Source: a virus. Taken from it: DNA of 38,551 nt. The stretch lies in IMG/VR virus record IMGVR_UViG_3300029110_000001; one strand, 5' to 3'. Position 1 is the first letter of the stretch, and every line of letters starts with the position of its first letter. The notes under the pieces are model-generated. The model did not search any database. It was not told the DNA's origin and saw only the letters and a list, made by a program, of their open reading frames with translations. Below, piece after piece: positions 1-38,551 of this stretch. The position numbers were made by a program, and so were the translations under genes.

Positions 1-79
1 TCGAAGGTGGAAGTAAAGCCTACGTTATTGACGGATTCAATGCTTGCATCAGAAGGCGTGGATATATTGGACATTTATG
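1..79. repeat. Terminal overlap, copy 1. It is identical to 38473-38551, indicating a circular or circularly permuted genome opened arbitrarily.
   Basis: I compared the first 79 nt (tcgaaggtggaagtaaagcc...ggacatttatg) base by base with the last 79 nt and they match exactly. An ORF runs through the junction in frame. Confidence 0.95.
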
Positions 80-350
80 CGGATATGTCGAAGTGCCTGA
101 CGGATTGGATATCGACATTGACGAAATTTACTGTCACGGTGGTATTACATTCAATGACTGTTGGGACGAGCTCCCGACTGACGGCCACTATATCGGTTTT
201 GATTGCATGCACTTCGGAGATTGGGACCCACTCTTAGCTAGCAATGGGTGGTCATTTGTCAGCCACACTTACAAAGACACCGAGTTTGTCTTGAACGAAA
301 TCAAAAGCATTATCAAACAACTAAAGGAGAAACAACATGAAAATTTTTAA
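3..350 (+). CDS. Hypothetical early protein, 3' part. This is the same gene as 38430-38551, which wraps around the window ends. The full product is about 130 aa and rich in His/Cys/Asp.
   Basis: The open frame from nt 3 continues the ATG at 38430 through the 79-nt overlap. Stop TAA is at 348-350. Motifs seen: HLCGYVEVP, CHGGITF, GFDCMHFGDW. Confidence 0.75.
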   Translation, partial: EGGSKAYVIDGFNACIRRRGYIGHLCGYVEVPDGLDIDIDEIYCHGGITFNDCWDELPTDGHYIGFDCMHFGDWDPLLASNGWSFVSHTYKDTEFVLNEIKSIIKQLKEKQHENF

Positions 351-477
351 CTGGATTTGGAGCAAGAAACAAGAACAAGTAGAAGTCTATGAAGTTCCAC
401 AATGGGAATCTTACACAGCTAAAGCTAGACGTTACAACCTAGATCATGGGCTACCAGAAGACAGACTAGTGGGGTAA
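337..477 (+). CDS. Small hypothetical protein (46 aa)
   Basis: ATG at 337 lies 7 nt after a strong AAGGAG (324-329) and overlaps the upstream stop, as in translational coupling. Stop TAA is at 475-477. The ORF is too short for the supplied ORF track. Confidence 0.55.
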   Translation: MKIFNWIWSKKQEQVEVYEVPQWESYTAKARRYNLDHGLPEDRLVG

Positions 478-480
478 CTC

Positions 481-600
481 ATGAAGTTATTAAAGAAATT
501 GCTAACCAGAAAAAAACCTAAAGAGCCAGAATACTTTTTCGAGGTGGTTGAAACCCCAGAGGAAAAGAGAGAAAGGCTCAAAAACAAATATACAAACTAA
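481..600 (+). CDS. Small basic hypothetical protein (39 aa)
   Basis: ATG at 481 lies 3 nt after the preceding stop, with only a weak GGGG Shine-Dalgarno. Stop TAA is at 598-600. Confidence 0.35.
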   Translation: MKLLKKLLTRKKPKEPEYFFEVVETPEEKRERLKNKYTN

Positions 601-607
601 CGTCAAT

Positions 608-765
608 CTCTCAACGTGCAGCCATGGCCCTGCCGTGGAGTGTAACTTATACCCATAAAATTTCCCCAAAATTATACTAAATTACTTTTTTCCTAATATT
701 CCCATTTTACAAGTCTAACAAACATTGAAATGTTCTACGGTGGGGCTATGGGTGCACGTTGAGAG
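608..765 (+). repeat. Long imperfect inverted repeat with 31-bp arms (608-638 and 735-765) around a 96-nt AT-rich, G-poor loop. Candidate structured RNA or MITE-like element.
   Basis: Hand pairing with i + j = 1373 gives 26 Watson-Crick pairs, 4 G-U pairs on the + strand only, and 1 G/G mismatch. It starts 8 nt after the stop at 598-600. Confidence 0.8.
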
Positions 766-775
766 CACTAAAAAA

Positions 776-795
776 GCATGGGTTAGGGCCCATGC
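776..795 (-). terminator. GC-rich hairpin (gcatggg/cccatgc) whose T-tract polarity fits a minus-strand intrinsic terminator
   Basis: A 7-bp stem (776-782/789-795) is flanked by A6 (770-775) and AAGAAAAAAA (796-805). A U-tract follows the hairpin only when read on the - strand. Confidence 0.35.
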
Positions 796-826
796 AAGAA
801 AAAAACATCTATAAGGAGATTATATC

Positions 827-2701
827 ATGAAATCTTTTAACACTCAAACAGTCGCTAAAACAAGCTATGTAAAAACTAAAGCATTTGGCTTGTGCGGTAC
901 ACTCGCACTCGCTACAGCTCTATTGCTTGGAGCTGGATCAGTGTCAGCCGATGAAACTACAGCGCCAGTAGCAGATACTCAGCCACCAGTAGCAAATGTA
1001 TACACTGCTGACAATGGTGGGAATGTTACAGTTACACCATCTGAAACAGTAGCACCAGCAGAAACTGCTACACCAGTGGTTGAAACAGCACCAGTGGCAG
1101 AACCTACACCGGTTACAGAAACACCAGTAGCGCAACCAGTGGCAGAAACTACAGCGCCAGTCGAAGCGCAACCTACTACATTCGTTAAAGAGGGTGACAC
1201 TATCCAAGTATCTAACCCTAATGTTGAGGTTGACCAGTCTCAAGGAACTGGTAAATACCAAGGCTTCACAGTGGAATACAAGGATGTAAAATTCCCTGAC
1301 GATATGGCTATCAATGAAGGGGATAAGGTTAAGTTCACTTTACCTGAAGAAGTGAAATTTCAAACTAACTTTGACTTTGATGTTTACAATCCTGACAAGC
1401 AAGTTGTTGGTAAAGCTACTACAGACACAGCAAGCAATACTGTGACTACTGTATTTAACAACTACTTTGCATCTCATCCGCTTAACAAGCAAATGAGTCT
1501 TAAAATGGACGCTACTTGGACAGACAAGGTCGAAAGTGGCAAGCCAGTCACAGTAAACTTCAATGGGACAGTGATCACCGTTAACATCGGCAAAGAACAA
1601 GAAATTGGTAAAGATGAATTACTTTCTAAATGGGGTAGTCAAGACGAGAATGACCCAACTGTTATCAACTGGACTGCTCGTATTAACTACGCTAAACGTC
1701 TATTGAATTACGTCACAATCATTGATGAGATGAGTGATAATCAAAAGCTTGTTGATAATTACTTCGAAATCAAATCGATTGAAAGCGTAGACCCTTGGAT
1801 TGATAAAGGTTCTGCTATGGATTTAGTAAAATCAATCAGTAAATCAGACCACGGTTTCACAATTAAAATGGATCGCCTTGATCATATGATTTATATTAAC
1901 TATAAAACTAAATTGATTAACGCGGTTAAAGAAAGCGTAAACCCAACCAATAAGGTTGAGTTGAAAGCTGAGTCAGACGGTGCTATCTCATACAGTTATG
2001 TTCAACTTGTCGGTGGTAAAGGCGATGCCAGTGGTGAGAACAAACCAGAGCCAACTTTTGAAATTCCACACGATGCACCTAAAGTTGAAATCCCTGAATT
2101 TAACGGTGGCGTTCCGGGTATTCCTGAAGAACGTGTAAAACCAGAATATACTGAGCCAATCGGAACAGTACCGAACGAAGCGCCAGTTTTGGATAAACCA
2201 GAGTGGAACGGTGGAACAGTACCGTTCGACGCTCCGAAATACGATAAGCCCGAATGGAACGGGGGCGTTATTCCTAATGATGCGCCACAGTATGATAAAC
2301 CCGAATGGCATGGCGGAACAACTCCATTCGATGCACCAAGCATTGATAAACCTGAATGGTCAGGCGGTGTCGTACCATTTGATGCACCTATCTTGGATTT
2401 GCCAGAGTTGCACATCCCAGAGGAACCAACTAAACCAACACCAGAGAAACCAGTAGAGCCTAAAAAGGTACCTAGCAAGCCCGTAGACGCTCCGAAAGCG
2501 AAAGAGGTAGAAATTACCGAGGTTGCTTATAAGCTCGATTCTGAGCCAAAAGAGGTGGCAAATACAGCCGTTTACGGCGGTGTTCTACCGAATACTGGTG
2601 AAAAAGAAGGCATCATGTCAACTCTTGGTCTTGTAGTCATCGCAGCGGGTATCGCAAGTTTGACATTAAGCTTTAAGAAGCACAACGAATGTGAGGAATA
2701 A
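827..2701 (+). CDS. LPXTG (LPNTG) cell-wall-anchored surface protein, MSCRAMM/adhesin-like, 624 aa
   Basis: RBS AAGGAG precedes the ATG at 827. The product has a signal peptide ending ...GAGSVSA/DE, a T/P/V/E-rich spacer and an Ig-like adhesin-type region. It also has 17-aa tandem repeats and LPNTG at 2585-2599, followed by a hydrophobic segment and a KKHNECEE tail. Confidence 0.9.
   Translation: MKSFNTQTVAKTSYVKTKAFGLCGTLALATALLLGAGSVSADETTAPVADTQPPVANVYTADNGGNVTVTPSETVAPAETATPVVETAPVAEPTPVTETPVAQPVAETTAPVEAQPTTFVKEGDTIQVSNPNVEVDQSQGTGKYQGFTVEYKDVKFPDDMAINEGDKVKFTLPEEVKFQTNFDFDVYNPDKQVVGKATTDTASNTVTTVFNNYFASHPLNKQMSLKMDATWTDKVESGKPVTVNFNGTVITVNIGKEQEIGKDELLSKWGSQDENDPTVINWTARINYAKRLLNYVTIIDEMSDNQKLVDNYFEIKSIESVDPWIDKGSAMDLVKSISKSDHGFTIKMDRLDHMIYINYKTKLINAVKESVNPTNKVELKAESDGAISYSYVQLVGGKGDASGENKPEPTFEIPHDAPKVEIPEFNGGVPGIPEERVKPEYTEPIGTVPNEAPVLDKPEWNGGTVPFDAPKYDKPEWNGGVIPNDAPQYDKPEWHGGTTPFDAPSIDKPEWSGGVVPFDAPILDLPELHIPEEPTKPTPEKPVEPKKVPSKPVDAPKAKEVEITEVAYKLDSEPKEVANTAVYGGVLPNTGEKEGIMSTLGLVVIAAGIASLTLSFKKHNECEE
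2180..2383 (+). repeat. Four tandem 51-nt (17-aa) repeats, AP..DKPEW.GG..P.D, inside the LPXTG gene. Degenerate copies flank them at about 2072-2179 and 2384-2415.
   Basis: I read four consecutive 51-nt units starting at 2180, 2231, 2282 and 2333. They encode APVLDKPEWNGGTVPFD, APKYDKPEWNGGVIPND, APQYDKPEWHGGTTPFD and APSIDKPEWSGGVVPFD. Confidence 0.9.
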
Positions 2702-2706
2702 CAACC

Positions 2707-3027
2707 ATGAAAGAAAACAATAAAAACATCGTATTCTACAGCGCTGAAAAGGATGGCTTTCTTACGAGCTATAAAGACAAAGGGAACATAGCGTTTACAG
2801 CGACTTTTGACGACAGACTTCGGGAAGCGTTACAGCTATCATTTGAACCATACGAAAAACAAAAAGCTGACATTGGCAAGCTTGCTGAAGCGTTTGGCTG
2901 CGAAGCGCTTATCGTAGAAGCTGAATACAACGTAACTAAACTTGACGGCTCGGACTTCGAACGCACAGAACGTGAACCAACCTTTGAAGACGGCTTTAAA
3001 GCACTTATGGAATTGTTTGCGAAGTAA
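2707..3027 (+). CDS. Hypothetical protein (106 aa), closely following the adhesin gene
   Basis: ATG lies 5 nt after the adhesin stop, and a GAGGA sits within the end of the upstream gene. No recognisable motif. Confidence 0.65.
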   Translation: MKENNKNIVFYSAEKDGFLTSYKDKGNIAFTATFDDRLREALQLSFEPYEKQKADIGKLAEAFGCEALIVEAEYNVTKLDGSDFERTEREPTFEDGFKALMELFAK

Positions 3028-3064
3028 TTAAATAAAAGCAGTGGTGGGAGGGTAGGCATTAAAC

Positions 3065-3247
3065 ATGGAACAAGAAACTTACGAAGTCGAGAACCGTTGG
3101 CGGAACAAGTACATGAATTTAGGTCGAGAGTTGGGGGAGATTATCAATAGTCAGCAAGACAGAATTTTGTCGCTAGCTCAAGAAAACACCAAGCTCAAAA
3201 GAGAGCTTTGGCACCTAAAAAAGTCAAAGGGCAGAAAATGGCTCTAA
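3065..3247 (+). CDS. Small coiled-coil hypothetical protein (60 aa)
   Basis: An ORF with a GGGAGG-type RBS upstream (3046-3052). The sequence is basic and helical. Confidence 0.55.
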   Translation: MEQETYEVENRWRNKYMNLGRELGEIINSQQDRILSLAQENTKLKRELWHLKKSKGRKWL

Positions 3248-3360
3248 AATCGCTTGTAACCGCCCTAAATAATCTAGTGGCACAATTACACTAGAGAAAC
3301 GGTAAAACGGCAAATAACCCCCAAAATTTGAGAATTAGGGGCATATAAAAAGGATATGAC

Positions 3361-4056
3361 ATGGAAGAAATGACATTTACAGAGTTGCAACAACGGATGC
3401 AGCTTAAAAAAAAGAAAGAAGGGACTGCCAAGTACGCTTCAAGGCACGCCGAGGACATTTACAACGTTTTTAAAAGTTTGAAATCAAATTGGAGCGTAGT
3501 AGTCAACTATGATCTAGTCGAATTTTCTGGCAAGGTTTTTATCAAGGCTATTGCAACGGCATCTAACCGAGAGGAGAAAGAGCAAGCAGTAGCGTTCGCA
3601 GAATTATCTCCCGTACCGATTTTGAAAACCCGCAACGGAGACTTAAAGCAAATGAATGAGCCGCAATGGGTAGGGGCCGTACAATCATACGCTGGGAAGT
3701 ACGCCTTGCAAGCACTATTTGCAATTGGCGAGGAAGACGTGGACCACTTCGAAGTGGCAGAGGAAAGTTTGAGACCAAACCAACCTCACAATGGTCAATA
3801 TCAAAACCAACAACCGAAAGCACAACCACAACCGCAAAACAACCCGCAGCCTAACTTTATCAGCAATGACCAGCATGATCTTATTATGCAACAAGTCAAT
3901 GAGTTGGCATTGTTGAGTGGCAAAGATTTCGAATATATCGAGAACTACTATCTACAGAAATACAAACTCAAGAATTTCCATGAGTTACTAGTTCCGGGGC
4001 TTGAAATTGTTGTCAATGACATTCAAGGGGAAATCAACAAAAGGAGAGGAAACTAG
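3361..4056 (+). CDS. Single-strand annealing protein, Erf-like (tentative)
   Basis: It sits immediately upstream of the DUF1351-like and SSB genes, as in Erf-type recombination modules. The N-terminal region resembles Erf, and it has a Q/P-rich linker (QYQNQQPKAQPQPQNNPQPN). Confidence 0.5.
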   Translation: MEEMTFTELQQRMQLKKKKEGTAKYASRHAEDIYNVFKSLKSNWSVVVNYDLVEFSGKVFIKAIATASNREEKEQAVAFAELSPVPILKTRNGDLKQMNEPQWVGAVQSYAGKYALQALFAIGEEDVDHFEVAEESLRPNQPHNGQYQNQQPKAQPQPQNNPQPNFISNDQHDLIMQQVNELALLSGKDFEYIENYYLQKYKLKNFHELLVPGLEIVVNDIQGEINKRRGN

Positions 4057-4058
4057 AC

Positions 4059-5030
4059 ATGAAGGACGTAACAAACAATTTTCTTGAAACGATTGAACCG
4101 GTCTATACGCCGGGGCAGATCAACTTTGATTTTGAAAAATTCGATGCAGCTATTCAAGCAGCAGTTAGCGAGCTATCAGACGAACAACTAGACAGCTTGG
4201 AATATAACGAGGTCTTAAAAGAAATCACACGCTTCAAAGGGCTTGGCGACAAACTTGACGATAAGCGTAAGGAAATCGGCAGGATCTACAAAGACCCACT
4301 CACTGAGTTTGAATCTAAACTAGCGACCTCGCTAGAGCCATTGGAGGCACTCCTTGAAAAGCTACGTGCTAAACGTGATGAAGTCAAAGAACACAAAAAA
4401 ATGCTGCGAATTGACCACGTTAGATCGGTATTTGAAAGCAAATGCGAGCTAGCTGGACTAGACAAGGACACATTCAAGGACAAGTACGAGAGCTTTTCTA
4501 AGGTCGGTGACTTCATGAATAAGAAAATGAAGCTCAAAAAAGAGACAGAAGAAAAGATTGACGCTCTTGTTTTGGCTGAGTATGACCGACTGGAAGAATA
4601 CAAGTCTAACGTGGGCATGATTGAGGAACAAGCCCTTGACTATGAGTTACCAGCTGAACCATACACTAGAGCATTGCAGAACGACACACCTCTAGTTGAA
4701 ATCTTGCAACAAATGAAAAAAGACCGTGATGCAGCTATTGAACGTAAGCAGCAAGCGGAAGCTAAACAAAAAGCAGAAGCGGCACGCCTAGCAGAAATTG
4801 AAGCAATGGCTAAGCAATCAGTAAGCGAGGAAATCAAGGCAGTAAATGCTGAAACTGGTGAGGTTATCGAAGGCACAAAACCAGTCGAGGAAATGCCTAG
4901 CAAGCCCGTTGAACCGTACAAGGTCAATCTTGCTCTTACGTTCCACGGTGGTGAAAACCAATGGCATCAATTCGCTAAATTGCTTGATGACAACTTTGTA
5001 AATTACGAAATTCTAGGAGAAAATCAATGA
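4059..5030 (+). CDS. Coiled-coil phage protein, DUF1351-like (tentative), 323 aa
   Basis: Its size, charged helical composition and position between the annealase and SSB are typical of this family in Gram-positive siphoviruses. Confidence 0.45.
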
Positions 5031-5527
5031 TCAATTCGACCGTACTAGTTGGGCGCCTAACCCGTGACCCCGAACTAAAATACACGACCAGTAACATTGC
5101 AGTAGCTACGTTTAGCCTAGCTGTTAACCGCAACTTCAAAGATGCTAACGGCGAACGTGAAACGGACTTTATCAACTGTGTTATCTGGCGTCAGCAAGCC
5201 GAGAATTTGGCTAACTGGGCTAAAAAAGGTGCATTGATTGGCATTACTGGACGCATTCAGACTCGTAGCTATGAGAATCAACAAGGTCAACGGGTGTATG
5301 TAACTGAGGTAGTCGCTGAGAACTTCCAAATGTTAGAGAGCCGTGCGGCGCGTGAAGGTAGCAATGCTACTCAAGGAAATACATCGGGAGCCTTTGGCAA
5401 TGATAACGGCTACGCTGGGCCTTACCAACAAGCACCACAACAACAAGGGCCAAACTTTGCGAGAGATAACGGTCCGTACGGGAACAGTAACCCAATGGAC
5501 ATCACTAGTGACGATTTACCCTTCTAA
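5027..5527 (+). CDS. ssb: Single-stranded DNA-binding protein
   Basis: An OB-fold N-terminus ([20 protein letters not shown]...[19 protein letters not shown]...[11 protein letters not shown]), a Gly/Gln/Asn-rich tail and the acidic C-terminal DDLPF. Confidence 0.95.
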
Positions 5528-5539
5528 TTTGGTGAAAAC

Positions 5540-6001
5540 ATGAAAATGATTTTAAATATCGAGCCTAAACCTCAAACAAGGCCACGATTTAGCAAGTTTG
5601 GAACTTATGAAGACCCTAAAATGAAGGCATGGCGTCGTCAATGCTCGCAACTTATCGAGCAAGAATATGACGGGCAATTCTTTGACGGCCCTATTATGGT
5701 TGATGTCACCTTCTATATGAAGGCACCTTTGAGCGTATCAAAAAAACCTACGCCAAAGGCTAGAGCTAAAACGTGGGACGCATTCAAGAGGTTCATGTCC
5801 GAGACACTTTGGCATTTCAGAAAACCCGATATTGACAATTTGGTCAAAGCGCTCTTTGATAGCATTTCAAACGCTGGTTACAACAAGGTTGATAAGAAGG
5901 GTATCGTCTGGACGGATGACAGTATTGTTTGCGATTTAAGAGCTCGCAAGAAGTACAGTCCTAACCCACGCATTGAATTTGAAATCAAGGAGCTCGAATG
6001 A
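5540..6001 (+). CDS. rusA: RusA-family Holliday junction resolvase
   Basis: Motifs PKPQTRPRF, DIDNLVKALFDS and VWTDDSIV match the RusA pattern. Confidence 0.8.
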   Translation: MKMILNIEPKPQTRPRFSKFGTYEDPKMKAWRRQCSQLIEQEYDGQFFDGPIMVDVTFYMKAPLSVSKKPTPKARAKTWDAFKRFMSETLWHFRKPDIDNLVKALFDSISNAGYNKVDKKGIVWTDDSIVCDLRARKKYSPNPRIEFEIKELE

Positions 6002-6195: not shown

Positions 6196-6398
6196 ATTTA
6201 TTAGAGTCACAAACATATCACAAGGAATTGACGTGGACACGATTTTAAATGTCGATGATATCGGACATATCTCTATTGGATCTAATATCATTTTTTGTAA
6301 AAACGCCGTTCGCAGACGGGACAAATCGGATTTATGTAAGAACCGAAACGATTGAGCAGTTAGAAAAGATTTTGCTAGAGGGAGAAAACAATGGATAG
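6188..6398 (+). pseudogene. Small phage gene interrupted by a +1 frame change at a T6 run (6291-6296). The reconstructed product is about 70 aa.
   Basis: Frame A (ATG 6188) reads MAKFIRVTNISQGIDVDTILNVDDIGHISIGSNIIF, then an unnatural basic tail. The adjacent frame reads VKTPFADGTNRIYVRTETIEQLEKILLEGENNG and ends at 6396-6398, overlapping the next gene's ATG at 6391. Confidence 0.6.
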
Positions 6399-6897
6399 AC
6401 AAGAAGCAGTGCAGAAATTAGCAAAGGTAGCACGTATTTCGGTAGCTTATGCTGAGGATTTATATGACTCGTTCTTCCCTAAACCAGTGGTGCCGCAGTA
6501 CGTGGCGGATTGGTATGAGGAACATAAGGACGATTTTGAAATAAAACTATTTCAATGTATCTGCGAAGCTGTTGAAAATTACGACGAAAACTCGGCAAAT
6601 GATTTTGAGAATTGGTTGATGTCTGATGATACCGAAGTAATCAAAACCCTCGTCAACATGCACCGATTCGGCTATGAGGTAGAGAAGGAGACTAGGTATA
6701 CGGTTCGGATTAAAGGGGTTGGTGGATACGCTACCCATCTAAATGAAAATTTAGACAATCATGAATGGTTCTTTGCATCAGATGACGAATTTAAAGGCTA
6801 TAGAATCAAGCACACCCGCAAAGAGCTTGAAGCGAACGGGTTCGGGTGGGTGTTCAACTGCCAAGGAGTGGAAGTGGAAGAGGTAACGGATGAATAA
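6391..6897 (+). CDS. Hypothetical phage protein (168 aa)
   Basis: A long ORF coupled to its neighbours at both start and stop. No catalytic motif recognised. Confidence 0.7.
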   Translation: MDRQEAVQKLAKVARISVAYAEDLYDSFFPKPVVPQYVADWYEEHKDDFEIKLFQCICEAVENYDENSANDFENWLMSDDTEVIKTLVNMHRFGYEVEKETRYTVRIKGVGGYATHLNENLDNHEWFFASDDEFKGYRIKHTRKELEANGFGWVFNCQGVEVEEVTDE

Positions 6898-7204
6898 TCT
6901 AATCAATAAAATCAATCGTTGGGCAGTTAGCCGTGGATTAAAGCAAGCTGACCCAAAAATTCAGTGGATGCGTGTGACTGAAGAGGTCGGAGAAATTCGA
7001 GATGTACTCTTGAAACCGACTAAATTCACGGAACCGCAAGCAGCACTTAAGGACGCAATCGGAGACACGTTGGTAACGATTATCGTGCTAGCACATCAAT
7101 TAGACCTCGATGTTACTGAGTGTCTAAGCATTGCATACGAGGAAATTAAGAATAGAAAAGGAAAGATGGTAAATGGAACATTCGTCAAGGAGGAAGATCT
7201 TTGA
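6890..7204 (+). CDS. MazG-like nucleotide pyrophosphohydrolase
   Basis: An EEVGE metal-binding motif (VTEEVGEIRD) and a downstream IGDTLVTIIVLA helix, with a size typical of phage MazG. Confidence 0.7.
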   Translation: MNNLINKINRWAVSRGLKQADPKIQWMRVTEEVGEIRDVLLKPTKFTEPQAALKDAIGDTLVTIIVLAHQLDLDVTECLSIAYEEIKNRKGKMVNGTFVKEEDL

Positions 7205-8436
7205 AGTTTATTGACTTATTCGCAGGTATTGGCGGGTTCAGACTAGGAATGGAATCGGCAGGACACGAATGTGTGGCATTCTGTGAAATCGACAAGTTCG
7301 CTAGAGCTAGCTATAAAGCAATTCACAACACGGAGGGAGAAATAGAACTACATGACATTACCACAGTCACAGACGAAGAAATCAGAAACATCGGACACGT
7401 TGACGCAATTTGCGGAGGATTTCCGTGTCAAGCTTTCAGCATTGCAGGACATCGAAGAGGATTCGAAGATACTAGAGGAACTCTCTTCTTTGAAATCGCA
7501 AGGTTCGCCGCTATTCTCAAACCTAAGTATCTATTCCTTGAAAACGTCAAAGGACTCCTTAACCACGACAAGGGAGATACCTTTCAGACAATCCTCTCAG
7601 CGTTGGATGAACTCGGGTATGATGTGGAATGGCAAGTGCTTAACAGTAAAGATTTCGGAGTACCACAAAATCGGGAACGTGTGTTCATTATCGGACATCT
7701 TAGAGGACAACGTGGACGAAAGATTTTTCCTCTCAGCGGAGAAAGTCAGTCGATTAGTAATCAATCAGTCGTGAAAATTGGGAATGTGAACCCGTCTGGA
7801 AACGGCATTAATGGAGAAGTCTATCAAGCTGAAGGTCTAGCTCCTACGCTTACAACGAATAAGGGAGAAGGACAGAAGATAGCAGTAAAAAGTAATACCA
7901 TAAAACGATTTGGGGTATTGCAACCTAACTTTAATCAATGTGGGGTTGTTTACGAAACAGATGGACTATCGCCAACCATCAGATCATACCAAGGTGGGGG
8001 CCTTGAACCCAAAATAATTCAGCGCAGTCATGGTTATAACAATGGCGGAGAGCATTGCATTGCACCAACTCTTACAAGTAATAGCTATCACGAAAATAAC
8101 TTTTTAAAACTAAAAATCCGTGAAGCAACTAAGCAAGGATACGCTGAAGCGAGCGCGGGGGATAGTGTTAATTTGTCGCACCCCAACTCCAAAACACGAA
8201 GAGGGCGAGTTGGCGAGGGCATAGCTAACACGCTAGTAACTGGTGATAACCAAGGTGTGGGAACCTCTAACTTCCGTATTCGCAAGCTAACCCCTAGGGA
8301 ATGTTGGAGATTGCAAGGTTTCCCCGACTGGGCATTTGACAAGGCGCAAGAGGTCAATAGCAACAGTCAGCTATACAAGCAAGCTGGCAATAGCGTGACC
8401 GTCAATGTAATTAAAGAAATAGCGAGGTATTTATGA
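7201..8436 (+). CDS. DNA (cytosine-5)-methyltransferase with a long variable region
   Basis: TTG start 7 nt after AGGAGG. C5-MTase motifs are present: I FAGIGGF, IV GFPCQAFS, VI ENV, VIII QNRERVF, IX-like RKLTPRECWRLQGFP and X GNSV. No adjacent restriction gene. Confidence 0.92.
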   Translation: MKFIDLFAGIGGFRLGMESAGHECVAFCEIDKFARASYKAIHNTEGEIELHDITTVTDEEIRNIGHVDAICGGFPCQAFSIAGHRRGFEDTRGTLFFEIARFAAILKPKYLFLENVKGLLNHDKGDTFQTILSALDELGYDVEWQVLNSKDFGVPQNRERVFIIGHLRGQRGRKIFPLSGESQSISNQSVVKIGNVNPSGNGINGEVYQAEGLAPTLTTNKGEGQKIAVKSNTIKRFGVLQPNFNQCGVVYETDGLSPTIRSYQGGGLEPKIIQRSHGYNNGGEHCIAPTLTSNSYHENNFLKLKIREATKQGYAEASAGDSVNLSHPNSKTRRGRVGEGIANTLVTGDNQGVGTSNFRIRKLTPRECWRLQGFPDWAFDKAQEVNSNSQLYKQAGNSVTVNVIKEIARYL

Positions 8437-34220: not shown

Positions 34221-34649
34221 TTATTTCAGATTTTGGACAGCGTAGTCAGCTTCTTCTTGTGTAAATTTGTCGAAATTTACCAATTGATCACGTATTGCGT
34301 CTGGAGACATAGCCACAGTATCTTGATATTGTTTCGCTTTTTCAACAGCTTGTTTGTTGTAATCAATACCAGAATTCTCTACAGCATAGTCAGCGGCCTC
34401 TTGAGAGTATTTATCAAAACTTACTAGTTGAGCACGCAATCCCTCTTTAGACATATAAACGGTACTAGCGTACTGCTTAGCTTTGGTTACAGCTGTTTTG
34501 TACTCCTTGGGGACTTTGCTCTCACTTGACTGCTCAGTTTTAGCCTTTGACGTCGAGCTAGTTTGAGAAGACGTGCTTTTGGCTTGAGAACAAGCAGCAA
34601 GGCTTACAATGGAAAGGCTTATTAAGCCGATAGACAATATTTTTTTCAT
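34221..34649 (-). CDS. ltp: Ltp-type surface lipoprotein (superinfection-exclusion family), 142 aa
   Basis: A lipobox (LAAC) follows the signal peptide, then a Ser/Thr-rich linker. There are two repeats of A..KAKQY......MS.......QL..FDK(Y/F)(S/T)QE(A/E)ADYAV(E/Q)N. The position between int and the repressor matches TP-J34 ltp. Confidence 0.8.
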   Translation of the reverse strand: MKKILSIGLISLSIVSLAACSQAKSTSSQTSSTSKAKTEQSSESKVPKEYKTAVTKAKQYASTVYMSKEGLRAQLVSFDKYSQEAADYAVENSGIDYNKQAVEKAKQYQDTVAMSPDAIRDQLVNFDKFTQEEADYAVQNLK

Positions 34650-35541: not shown

Positions 35542-35570
35542 TTGACATTGAATTTAATTCAAGTTATAAT
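35542..35570 (+). promoter_or_regulatory. Early lytic promoter (consensus TTGACA-17 nt-TATAAT)
   Basis: TTGACA at 35542-35547 and TATAAT at 35565-35570. The spacer is occupied by the operator palindrome. Confidence 0.8.
35547..35564. promoter_or_regulatory. Operator palindrome (a)TTGAATTtAATTCAAGT within the lytic promoter spacer
   Basis: Dyad symmetry read directly. It has the same core as the perfect palindrome at 35824-35842. Confidence 0.65.
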
Positions 35571-35603: not shown

Positions 35604-35807
35604 ATGACAAAAACAGTTCCAAAGATTACAATCAAAGAACTTCGAGCCCGTCATAATCTAACACAGGCGAAATTCGCTGAAAGCATTGGTACTACAGCTC
35701 AAACGGTTAGCGCTTGGGAGAAAAATGCTCTTTCTATTTCTCCTAAGCACATGGTAACTATTTGTAATAAATACCACATTAAATCATCTGATTTGTACGG
35801 TATTTGA
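35604..35807 (+). CDS. Cro-like XRE-family HTH protein (67 aa)
   Basis: RBS GAGGAGG upstream. The HTH is LTQAKFAESIGTTAQTVSAWEKN. Confidence 0.85.
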   Translation: MTKTVPKITIKELRARHNLTQAKFAESIGTTAQTVSAWEKNALSISPKHMVTICNKYHIKSSDLYGI

Positions 35808-38429: not shown

Positions 38430-38551
38430 ATGACTAATCAAGAACGTTACGAGAATGATTTAAAAATCATTCTCGAAGGTGGAAGTAAAGCCTACGTTAT
38501 TGACGGATTCAATGCTTGCATCAGAAGGCGTGGATATATTGGACATTTATG
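38430..38551 (+). CDS. Hypothetical early protein, 5' part. It continues at nt 80 of the window through the circular junction.
   Basis: ATG at 38430 lies 6 nt after AGGAGGT. The frame runs into the terminal overlap and on to the stop at 348-350. Confidence 0.75.
   Translation, partial: MTNQERYENDLKIILEGGSKAYVIDGFNACIRRRGYIGHL
38473..38551. repeat. Terminal overlap, copy 2 (identical to 1-79)
   Basis: Base-by-base identity with nt 1-79. Confidence 0.95.

Follow-up and report, generated by a model that had tools for sequence, protein, structure and literature searches.

Why would a temperate phage carry, among its early genes, a gene for an adhesin destined for the wall of its host? This question is raised by the IMG/VR virus record IMGVR_UViG_3300029110_000001, a stretch of 38,551 nucleotides (nt; hereafter, the window), in which a 624-residue open reading frame (ORF) at positions 827–2701 encodes a predicted sortase-anchored surface protein. 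The usual view of phage-borne surface adhesins is that they are prophage cargo that aids colonization by the lysogen. On a Staphylococcus aureus prophage, the sortase-type surface protein SasX improves colonization, and both SasX and the LPXTG proteins of group B Streptococcus (GBS) prophages have been described as accessory cargo. The LPXTG gene of the phiD12-like GBS prophages has been noted as a possible adhesin or colonization factor (PMC6546898). Like SasX and the product of this GBS gene, the protein described here is a sortase-substrate surface protein on a temperate phage. Unlike that cargo, it is encoded in early or replication operons, is associated with a conserved RNA leader, swaps its head and occurs in carriers without a detectable lysogeny module. 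On balance, we regard it as probable that the adhesin gene shares its transcription with the early genes and that sortase presents the protein on cells harbouring an active phage, where it would alter adhesion to the benefit of the phage.

Domain architecture of the adhesin

The protein consists of a signal peptide, an N-terminal spacer, a two-domain head, a block of 17-residue repeats, a stalk and a sorting signal (Table 1). This arrangement had been proposed in a preliminary description made from the DNA letters alone, and each part was recovered here. At the N-terminus, an n-region with a net charge of +4 precedes a hydrophobic core (residues 20–34, Kyte–Doolittle 2.09) and a VSA/DE site that fits the −3/−1 rule. 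The composition of residues 44–118 agrees with a Thr/Pro/Val/Glu-rich spacer; this segment contains 18-nt tandem DNA repeats at 1028–1122 (Tandem Repeats Finder), and its length and sequence differ among homologues. The 17-residue repeats belong to the NCBIfam family NF043031 (SIALI-17), which matches five stretches with 76.8 bits (cutoff, 30), and a regular-expression search for DAPxxDKPEWxGG finds four clear copies together with degenerate ones. The number of copies differs among homologues. A Pro/Lys-rich composition over residues 527–586 is as described for the wall spanner. LPNTG, located exactly where it had been placed, is followed by a hydrophobic segment of 18 residues and a tail ending in FKKHNECEE, and the LPXTG_anchor model TIGR01167 scores above its cutoff (17.8 versus 15.9). 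Among the distinct full-length homologues from leader-bearing loci, the sorting motif is LPxTG or LPNAG only. No Ltp domain was found in the adhesin with Pfam and no lipobox is present, as the sequence FGLC does not fit one. PHROGs holds no family for the adhesin, and no PADLOC model matches it.

In the head, the Pfam domains Big_8 (residues 153–234, 4e-11) and Collagen_bind (residues 264–369, 4.8e-11) both exceed their cutoffs. A single-sequence phmmer search of the adhesin against the PDB sequences returned no match. A profile of 31 family members matches Ace (PDB ID: 2z1p, 5.9e-16) and Cna (PDB ID: 2f68, 2e-12) with both subdomains covered, and it also matches Cnm, RspB, SdrE and ClfB. Structure prediction of this region, which the preliminary description had suggested, yielded a confident MSCRAMM fold: the AlphaFold2 (AF2) model of residues 107–428 is all-beta, with a predicted local distance difference test (pLDDT) score of 93.8 and a predicted template modelling (pTM) score of 0.83. 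The best 50 Foldseek matches in the PDB are nearly all MSCRAMM ligand-binding regions, with E values down to 4e-17 and with SdrE, ClfA, Bbp, Cna, Cnm, RspB, SdrG and Ace at the top. TM-scores to the Cna/Ace/Cnm group are 0.64–0.69, with maxima of 0.69 for Cnm and 0.68 for Cna. In BFVD, the head has a single good structural match. Profile and predicted model thus support a head that is MSCRAMM-like, with the Cna/Ace/Cnm collagen-binding type as its nearest subgroup. Among the hidden Markov models proposed beforehand, Collagen_bind scores above its cutoff, Gram_pos_anchor lies just below its own, and Cna_B repeats are absent.

The architecture is shared with Cna of S. aureus, Ace of Enterococcus faecalis and Cnm of Streptococcus mutans, which likewise combine a signal peptide, two IgG-like subdomains, a stalk and an LPXTG signal. 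In contrast to these chromosomal proteins, the adhesin is encoded by a phage and placed in an early operon, and the place of Cna_B repeats is taken by SIALI-17 repeats and a Pro-rich stalk. Based on these repeats, the NCBI pipeline would name it a SIALI-17 repeat-containing surface protein. The name of NF043031 fits the phage adhesin by its repeats alone; the head, the phage location and the function are outside the definition of that family.

Distribution across Streptococcus phages

Relatives of the adhesin gene are present in at least 260 IMG/VR contigs and in nine GenBank Streptococcus phages. The gene is always co-oriented within early or replication operons, at differing positions on unrelated backbones. 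Orthologues with 56–77% identity are encoded by YMC-2011 (AEJ54387), SA-TP2, Javan534, Javan535, Javan536, Javan539, Javan311 (S. mitis) and Javan371 (S. parasanguinis). Three of these, the S. salivarius phages YMC-2011, SA-TP2 and Javan535, have the gene where the window has it, with the switch/antirepressor genes on one side and the replication module on the other; the replication modules that follow it in the YMC-2011-type phages differ from that of the window. In GenBank, orthologues are labelled 'sialidase', 'cell wall-associated protein precursor WapA', 'putative outer membrane protein', 'hypothetical' or 'collagen binding domain protein'. By predicted domain content, 'sialidase', 'WapA' and 'outer membrane protein' are unfit labels; misfit labels stand in MK448799/800/979 (Javan535/539/534), in MK448743 (Javan371) and in 'MAG TPA' entries of nr.

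Among 5.8 billion proteins searched, 1,667 are related to the head, with identities of 82–96% for the 120 best. Among 50%-identity cluster representatives, matches are confined to 316 clusters (38 at E ≤ 1e-30), which marks a narrow family, and nearly all full-length members have an LPxTG end. In the GTDB species genomes, all 10 matches come from Streptococcus; the ORFs beside them have counterparts in viral contigs, which indicates that these copies lie in prophages. In two prophages, from Streptococcaceae bacterium AF13-5-6.0 (L133) and S. parasanguinis DFI.4.46 (L134), the adhesin gene appears frameshifted or truncated, with pieces of 423 + 205 and 344 residues, respectively. A 476-residue homologue with 31% identity has the corresponding location, ahead of the replication genes, in MW057932.1, 'Campylobacter phage CJLB-5' (L125); this phage has a Gram-positive-style lysogeny module, and its Campylobacter host label looks doubtful.

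The position of the gene differs from backbone to backbone. In phages with a RecT–DUF1351–SSB–RusA module, it lies right after RusA, at a gap of 12 nt, and in Javan311 it sits between an SNF2-type helicase gene and a primase gene. In a group of phages with genomes of ~61 kb, it lies between the genes for a primase-helicase and for DUF1642/DNA polymerase A, at a gap of 2 nt. On these other backbones, no leader is present and the gene is 2–19 nt from replication genes on both sides. Between phages of differing backbones, from S. salivarius, S. mitis, S. parasanguinis or S. gingivalis, the identity of the head is 75–96%. Because the arrangement of leader, gene and downstream ORF recurs in >100 independent contigs, and because the gene is present in the cultured phages YMC-2011, SA-TP2 and Javan534/535/536/539, mis-assembly is excluded in practice. 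The location, which the preliminary description had called unusual, is so in comparison with textbook conversion genes; among oral streptococcal phages, it is common and is already annotated in GenBank.

The ~61-kb lineage (L004–L006, L137–L158 and L237–L318, from IMG/VR and metagenome contigs) consists of uncultured Streptococcus phages. Megablast against the GenBank phages found no relative of this lineage, and by protein comparison the nearest primase-helicase is 28% identical to its own. Late and early arms are divergent, with portal and terminase genes adjoining the early genes, and the adhesin encoded in the replication module has a head identity of 83–85%. No integrase or repressor was found in the ~57 of 61 kb covered, which include the convergent arm junction. 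In tblastn searches with four integrases and a CI-type repressor, nothing was matched in 81 loci of the lineage, and control temperate loci were matched; judged from the ~57 of 61 kb covered, the lineage is therefore probably a virulent carrier of the adhesin. Its DNA polymerase A gene is interrupted by a LAGLIDADG ORF, and one of its late proteins has a MucBP domain.

A conserved RNA leader precedes the gene

In the window, the adhesin gene is preceded by 226 untranslated nt, which had been described beforehand as structured. The region 598–830 folds at −76.7 kcal/mol (z = −7.4), a value equalled by none of 200 shuffled sequences. Its main element is a long stem, P1, in which about 608–640 pairs with about 735–767, enclosing an A/U-rich variable loop that opens with the conserved motif GAGUGUAACUUAUACC. 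A second hairpin, P2 (776–795), has A-runs on its flanks, and a Shine-Dalgarno sequence, AAGGAG, is located at 814–819. A 20-nt leader pattern was found in 113 IMG/VR loci, including one chance match (L029), and wherever the downstream sequence sufficed, an LPxTG ORF of 546–645 residues begins about 50 or 81–85 nt past it. The leader is common to YMC-2011, SA-TP2 and Javan535.

Across 92 leaders, 99.1% of the cells of the structure are paired, compared with 94.8% in shuffled alignments (0/500) and 26–41% when the partners were slid against each other. Double changes in the pairs amount to 173 cells versus 60 in shuffles, in a set of related sequences whose variation falls into few haplotypes and from which the structure was itself derived. 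Three columns of P1 are fully compensatory, all of them at NNN positions left free in the search pattern, and eight columns of the leader alternate between Watson-Crick and G.U pairs. This alternation fits a plus-strand RNA, and neither DNA nor the minus strand. Other readings of the long inverted repeat, as a minus-strand RNA or as a cruciform, origin or recombination site in the DNA, were rejected on account of the same eight columns. The pattern of substitutions is that of a conserved, covarying RNA structure.

Rfam gave no match at gathering thresholds in the whole window; at a relaxed E-value, just hairpin-shaped chance matches to miRNA models were obtained, far under the thresholds. Read from the minus strand, P2 has the form of an intrinsic terminator. 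The 3′ part of the leader is also matched by two S. thermophilus phages, CHPC640 and CHPC676. CHPC640 keeps the base of P1 and P2 without an adhesin gene at that place, which assigns the element to the early region, with no strict tie to the adhesin. By analogy with phage early mRNAs, the leader may be an RNase III processing site or a 5′ stabilizer.

Transcription of the adhesin gene

The window begins and ends with the same 79 bases (1–79 and 38473–38551), an exact terminal direct repeat, and it is therefore taken as a complete circular assembly with a genome of 38,472 bp. It represents a temperate siphophage of salivarius-group streptococci. The preliminary description had already called the phage temperate; it carries a serine integrase, Ltp, an M78 peptidase and a helix-turn-helix (HTH) repressor, the latter two on the minus strand, together with the early promoter pR, Cro and Ant. 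From pR to the adhesin gene, a distance of ~3.7 kb across the circular junction, no plus-strand terminator-like site was found. None was found in positions 1–3500 either, and hence none after the adhesin gene. A scan of the window likewise gave no plus-strand promoter-like site in 601–826, and no positionally conserved sigma-70 promoter was found across 86 distinct leaders, by scoring or by eye. In the window, 5 nt separate the adhesin stop codon from the next ORF, and in related loci this gap is mostly 2–80 nt. These features make pR, whose function is predicted from its sequence, the most likely source of the adhesin transcript.

The preliminary description had proposed that the gene is a moron, that is, a form of lysogenic conversion. 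In this classic scenario, a promoter of its own, hidden in the leader, would drive expression in the repressed prophage, and the lysogen would colonize better. The scenario draws on the temperate nature of the window phage, on the location of all close relatives from isolate genomes in prophages, on the 226 nt of conserved non-coding sequence upstream of the gene, and on a subset of leaders with a promoter-like match of 10/12. GBS prophage LPXTG genes have also been proposed as colonization factors (PMC6546898). Against it stand the absence of any position at which a promoter is conserved across the leaders, the lack of a terminator downstream of the gene or between pR and the gene, and the short gap to the next ORF. 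The gene is, moreover, outside the lysogeny module, where the window phage keeps Ltp; on other backbones it is leaderless and wedged within 2–19 nt of replication genes; and relatives are present in the ~61-kb lineage without a detectable lysogeny module. We therefore consider conversion rather unlikely, and its moron form is not supported.

Selection on the head and exchange of heads

When the window copy is compared with the copies of the ~61-kb, RusA-type and Javan311 phages, the head has a non-synonymous divergence (dN) of 0.10–0.15 with saturated synonymous divergence (dS), and the signal peptide/spacer and anchor have dN values of 0.6–1.1. By these estimates, the head is under strong purifying selection, and the signal peptide/spacer and the anchor have effectively been replaced between lineages. 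That the gene is a functionless passenger or an assembly artefact is scarcely credible in light of these values. Two frameshifted prophage copies and the lack of a PHROG family would fit a passenger, but the gene is carried by >260 viral contigs and by cultured phages, its head is strongly constrained, its leader is conserved and covarying, and signal peptide and sorting signal are intact in all 83 distinct full-length homologues from leader-bearing loci.

In seven loci (L030, L034, L072, L100, L108, L114 and L120), the shared leader, SIALI-17 stalk and anchor are combined with a different head that contains Adhesin_P1_N and GbpC domains. By domain assignment, this head is of the antigen I/II (AgI/II) V-region type, and the heads of the cassette, Cna-type or AgI/II-GbpC-type, are interchangeable on the evidence of these sequences. 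The likeness to antigen I/II (SpaP/P1, SspA/B) and GbpC is confined to the alternative head of the seven loci, as the window protein has the Cna-type head, and the phage versions are far shorter than chromosomal AgI/II proteins. Because two unrelated adhesin heads occupy one slot, adhesion itself, and not a specific masking interaction, appears to be the selected function.

This exchange bears on a further rival, in which the wall protein would cover the phage receptor, or bind incoming or progeny virions, and so act in superinfection exclusion. The T5 Llp lipoprotein is an exclusion and receptor-masking protein of this kind that acts early in infection. Probable early expression and a surface location would suit such a role, and a benefit to the phage is plausible. 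Yet the window phage already encodes an Ltp-type exclusion lipoprotein, the head is highly conserved across phages of four Streptococcus host species, a glucan-binding head of the AgI/II type can substitute for it, the long stalk puts the head away from the wall, and PADLOC gave no match. We regard masking or exclusion as improbable. The suggestion in the preliminary description that the protein remodels the surface of the infected cell fits the data better than the moron proposal; receptor masking, which had been given as an example, is not favoured, owing to the presence of Ltp, the conservation of the head across hosts and the head swap.

Gene neighbourhood and feature coordinates

The adhesin gene was confirmed to run in the direction of the early genes and to lie ahead of Erf, SSB and RusA (Table 1). 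The C-terminal coding part of the small upstream ORF is conserved ahead of the leader in an alignment of related phages. The 106-residue ORF follows the adhesin gene in 39 of 77 related loci, usually at a gap of 2 nt, and is present in YMC-2011 and SA-TP2 as well; this ORF may encode a functional partner of the adhesin. In four loci (L018, L111, L115 and L120), its place is taken by repetitive, pentapeptide-repeat-like ORFs, recognized by eye in translations, which begin at or overlap the adhesin stop codon. PADLOC matched none of the small neighbours of the adhesin gene, the 39-residue ORF among them, and base composition gave no sign of recent foreign origin. The early region also encodes a C5 cytosine DNA methylase (7201–8436) and a DUF1642 protein (6391–6897); DUF1642 is also found next to the adhesin gene in the ~61-kb lineage and in phages of the RusA type. 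The Ltp gene is flanked by the serine integrase gene and the M78 peptidase/repressor pair within the lysogeny module. At the DNA level, the resemblance of the window phage to cultured phages is restricted to the lysis module.

Table 1 Coordinates of the adhesin gene, its parts and selected features in the window
Feature	Position	Strand	Basis or remark
Small 39-residue ORF	481–600	+	Ends where leader begins
Structured 5′ leader RNA	601–826	+	Fold, covariation
Adhesin ORF	827–2701	+	ATG start, 624 residues
Signal peptide, residues 1–42	827–952	+	Predicted cleavage VSA/DE
Thr/Ala/Pro/Val/Glu-rich N-terminal spacer, residues 43–118	953–1180	+	Composition
Predicted ligand-binding head, residues 119–405, two IgG-like subdomains, Cna/Ace/Cnm MSCRAMM type	1181–2041	+	Pfam, profile, AF2, Foldseek
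SIALI-17 repeat region, residues 406–526, ~4.5 copies of 17-residue unit (..VPFDAPxYDKPEWNGG..)	2042–2404	+	
Pro/Lys/Glu-rich wall-spanning stalk, residues 527–586	2405–2584	+	Composition
Sorting signal: LPNTG 2585–2599 (residues 587–591), hydrophobic segment (residues 595–612), charged tail, stop	2585–2701	+	
106-residue ORF, phrog_2486	2707–3027	+	PHROGs 2.5e-29
Erf	3361–4056		Downstream of adhesin gene
DUF1351	4059–5030		Downstream of adhesin gene
SSB (single-stranded DNA-binding protein)	5027–5527		Downstream of adhesin gene
RusA	5540–6001		Downstream of adhesin gene
Ltp-type superinfection-exclusion lipoprotein	34221–34649	−	Pfam Lipoprotein_Ltp 4e-34
Early promoter pR	35542–35570	+	TTGACA-17-TATAAT, 12/12 consensus (promoter scan)
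Cro-like HTH gene	35604–35807	+	Pfam HTH_3; directly downstream of pR; Ant comes next

Proposed role of the adhesin

If the adhesin is made with the early genes, as we favour, the following sequence of events can be proposed. The adhesin gene, which has no detectable promoter or terminator of its own, would ride on the pR transcript behind the structured leader, and the protein would be made during early gene expression, whether this follows infection or induction, with any leaky expression in the lysogen adding to this. Following Sec export, host sortase A would covalently anchor the MSCRAMM adhesin to the streptococcal cell wall, where the SIALI-17 repeats and the proline-rich stalk may hold the two-domain head of the Cna/Ace/Cnm type off the wall. 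The adhesion of the phage-carrying cell would thereby change, with host matrix or pellicle proteins or biofilm partners as candidate ligands. One possible benefit is that the producing cell would be held in a dense community of susceptible hosts.

Several points weigh against this explanation. The signal peptide was called by a heuristic (charge, hydropathy and the −3/−1 rule), and the Pfam model Gram_pos_anchor (PF00746) scores 17.4, just under its cutoff of 20. Identity to solved adhesin structures is just 13–16%, and collagen binding is not deducible from the fold. The promoter and terminator scans were simple consensus scans; 10 of the 86 leaders reach a promoter match of 10/12, and the A/T-rich loop could conceivably contain a promoter that is weak or departs from the consensus. 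The search for lysogeny genes in the ~61-kb lineage used five query proteins, with ~4 kb of the late arm outside the coverage. Finally, the two frameshifted prophage copies indicate that the gene is dispensable and can decay in resident prophages.

A broader version of the early-expression explanation may be put forward tentatively, as a possibility that falls short of probable. Oral streptococcal phages, including the apparently virulent ~61-kb lineage, would use an early-expressed, head-swappable, sortase-anchored cassette to reprogram the adhesion of the cell that they have taken over. Tethered to host surfaces, to the glucan matrix or to neighbouring streptococci, this cell would burst among new hosts. 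The adhesin would then be an instrument of host behaviour manipulation in the lytic cycle and not of lysogenic conversion, with the leader RNA as its gate in phages of the salivarius group.

Implications

The adhesin gene itself was already known as an annotated gene in GenBank phage records, such as that of YMC-2011. No functional study of this phage adhesin family was found in the literature searched, the reach of which did not include the YMC-2011 paper; that paper reportedly treats the switch promoters and not the adhesin gene. What is new is the embedding of the gene in early operons across lineages, its presence in probable virulent carriers, the selection on the head, the swapping of heads and the leader RNA. 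The covarying leader is a candidate for a new cis-acting RNA motif of streptococcal phages. S. salivarius with YMC-2011 and SA-TP2 lysogens offers a direct test system for the adhesion idea. The finding bears on the misannotation of these proteins, on the adhesin repertoire of oral and gut streptococci and on strain-level differences in colonization. If the adhesin is made in the lytic cycle, it would exemplify a phage that promotes its own transmission by changing how an infected Gram-positive cell adheres.

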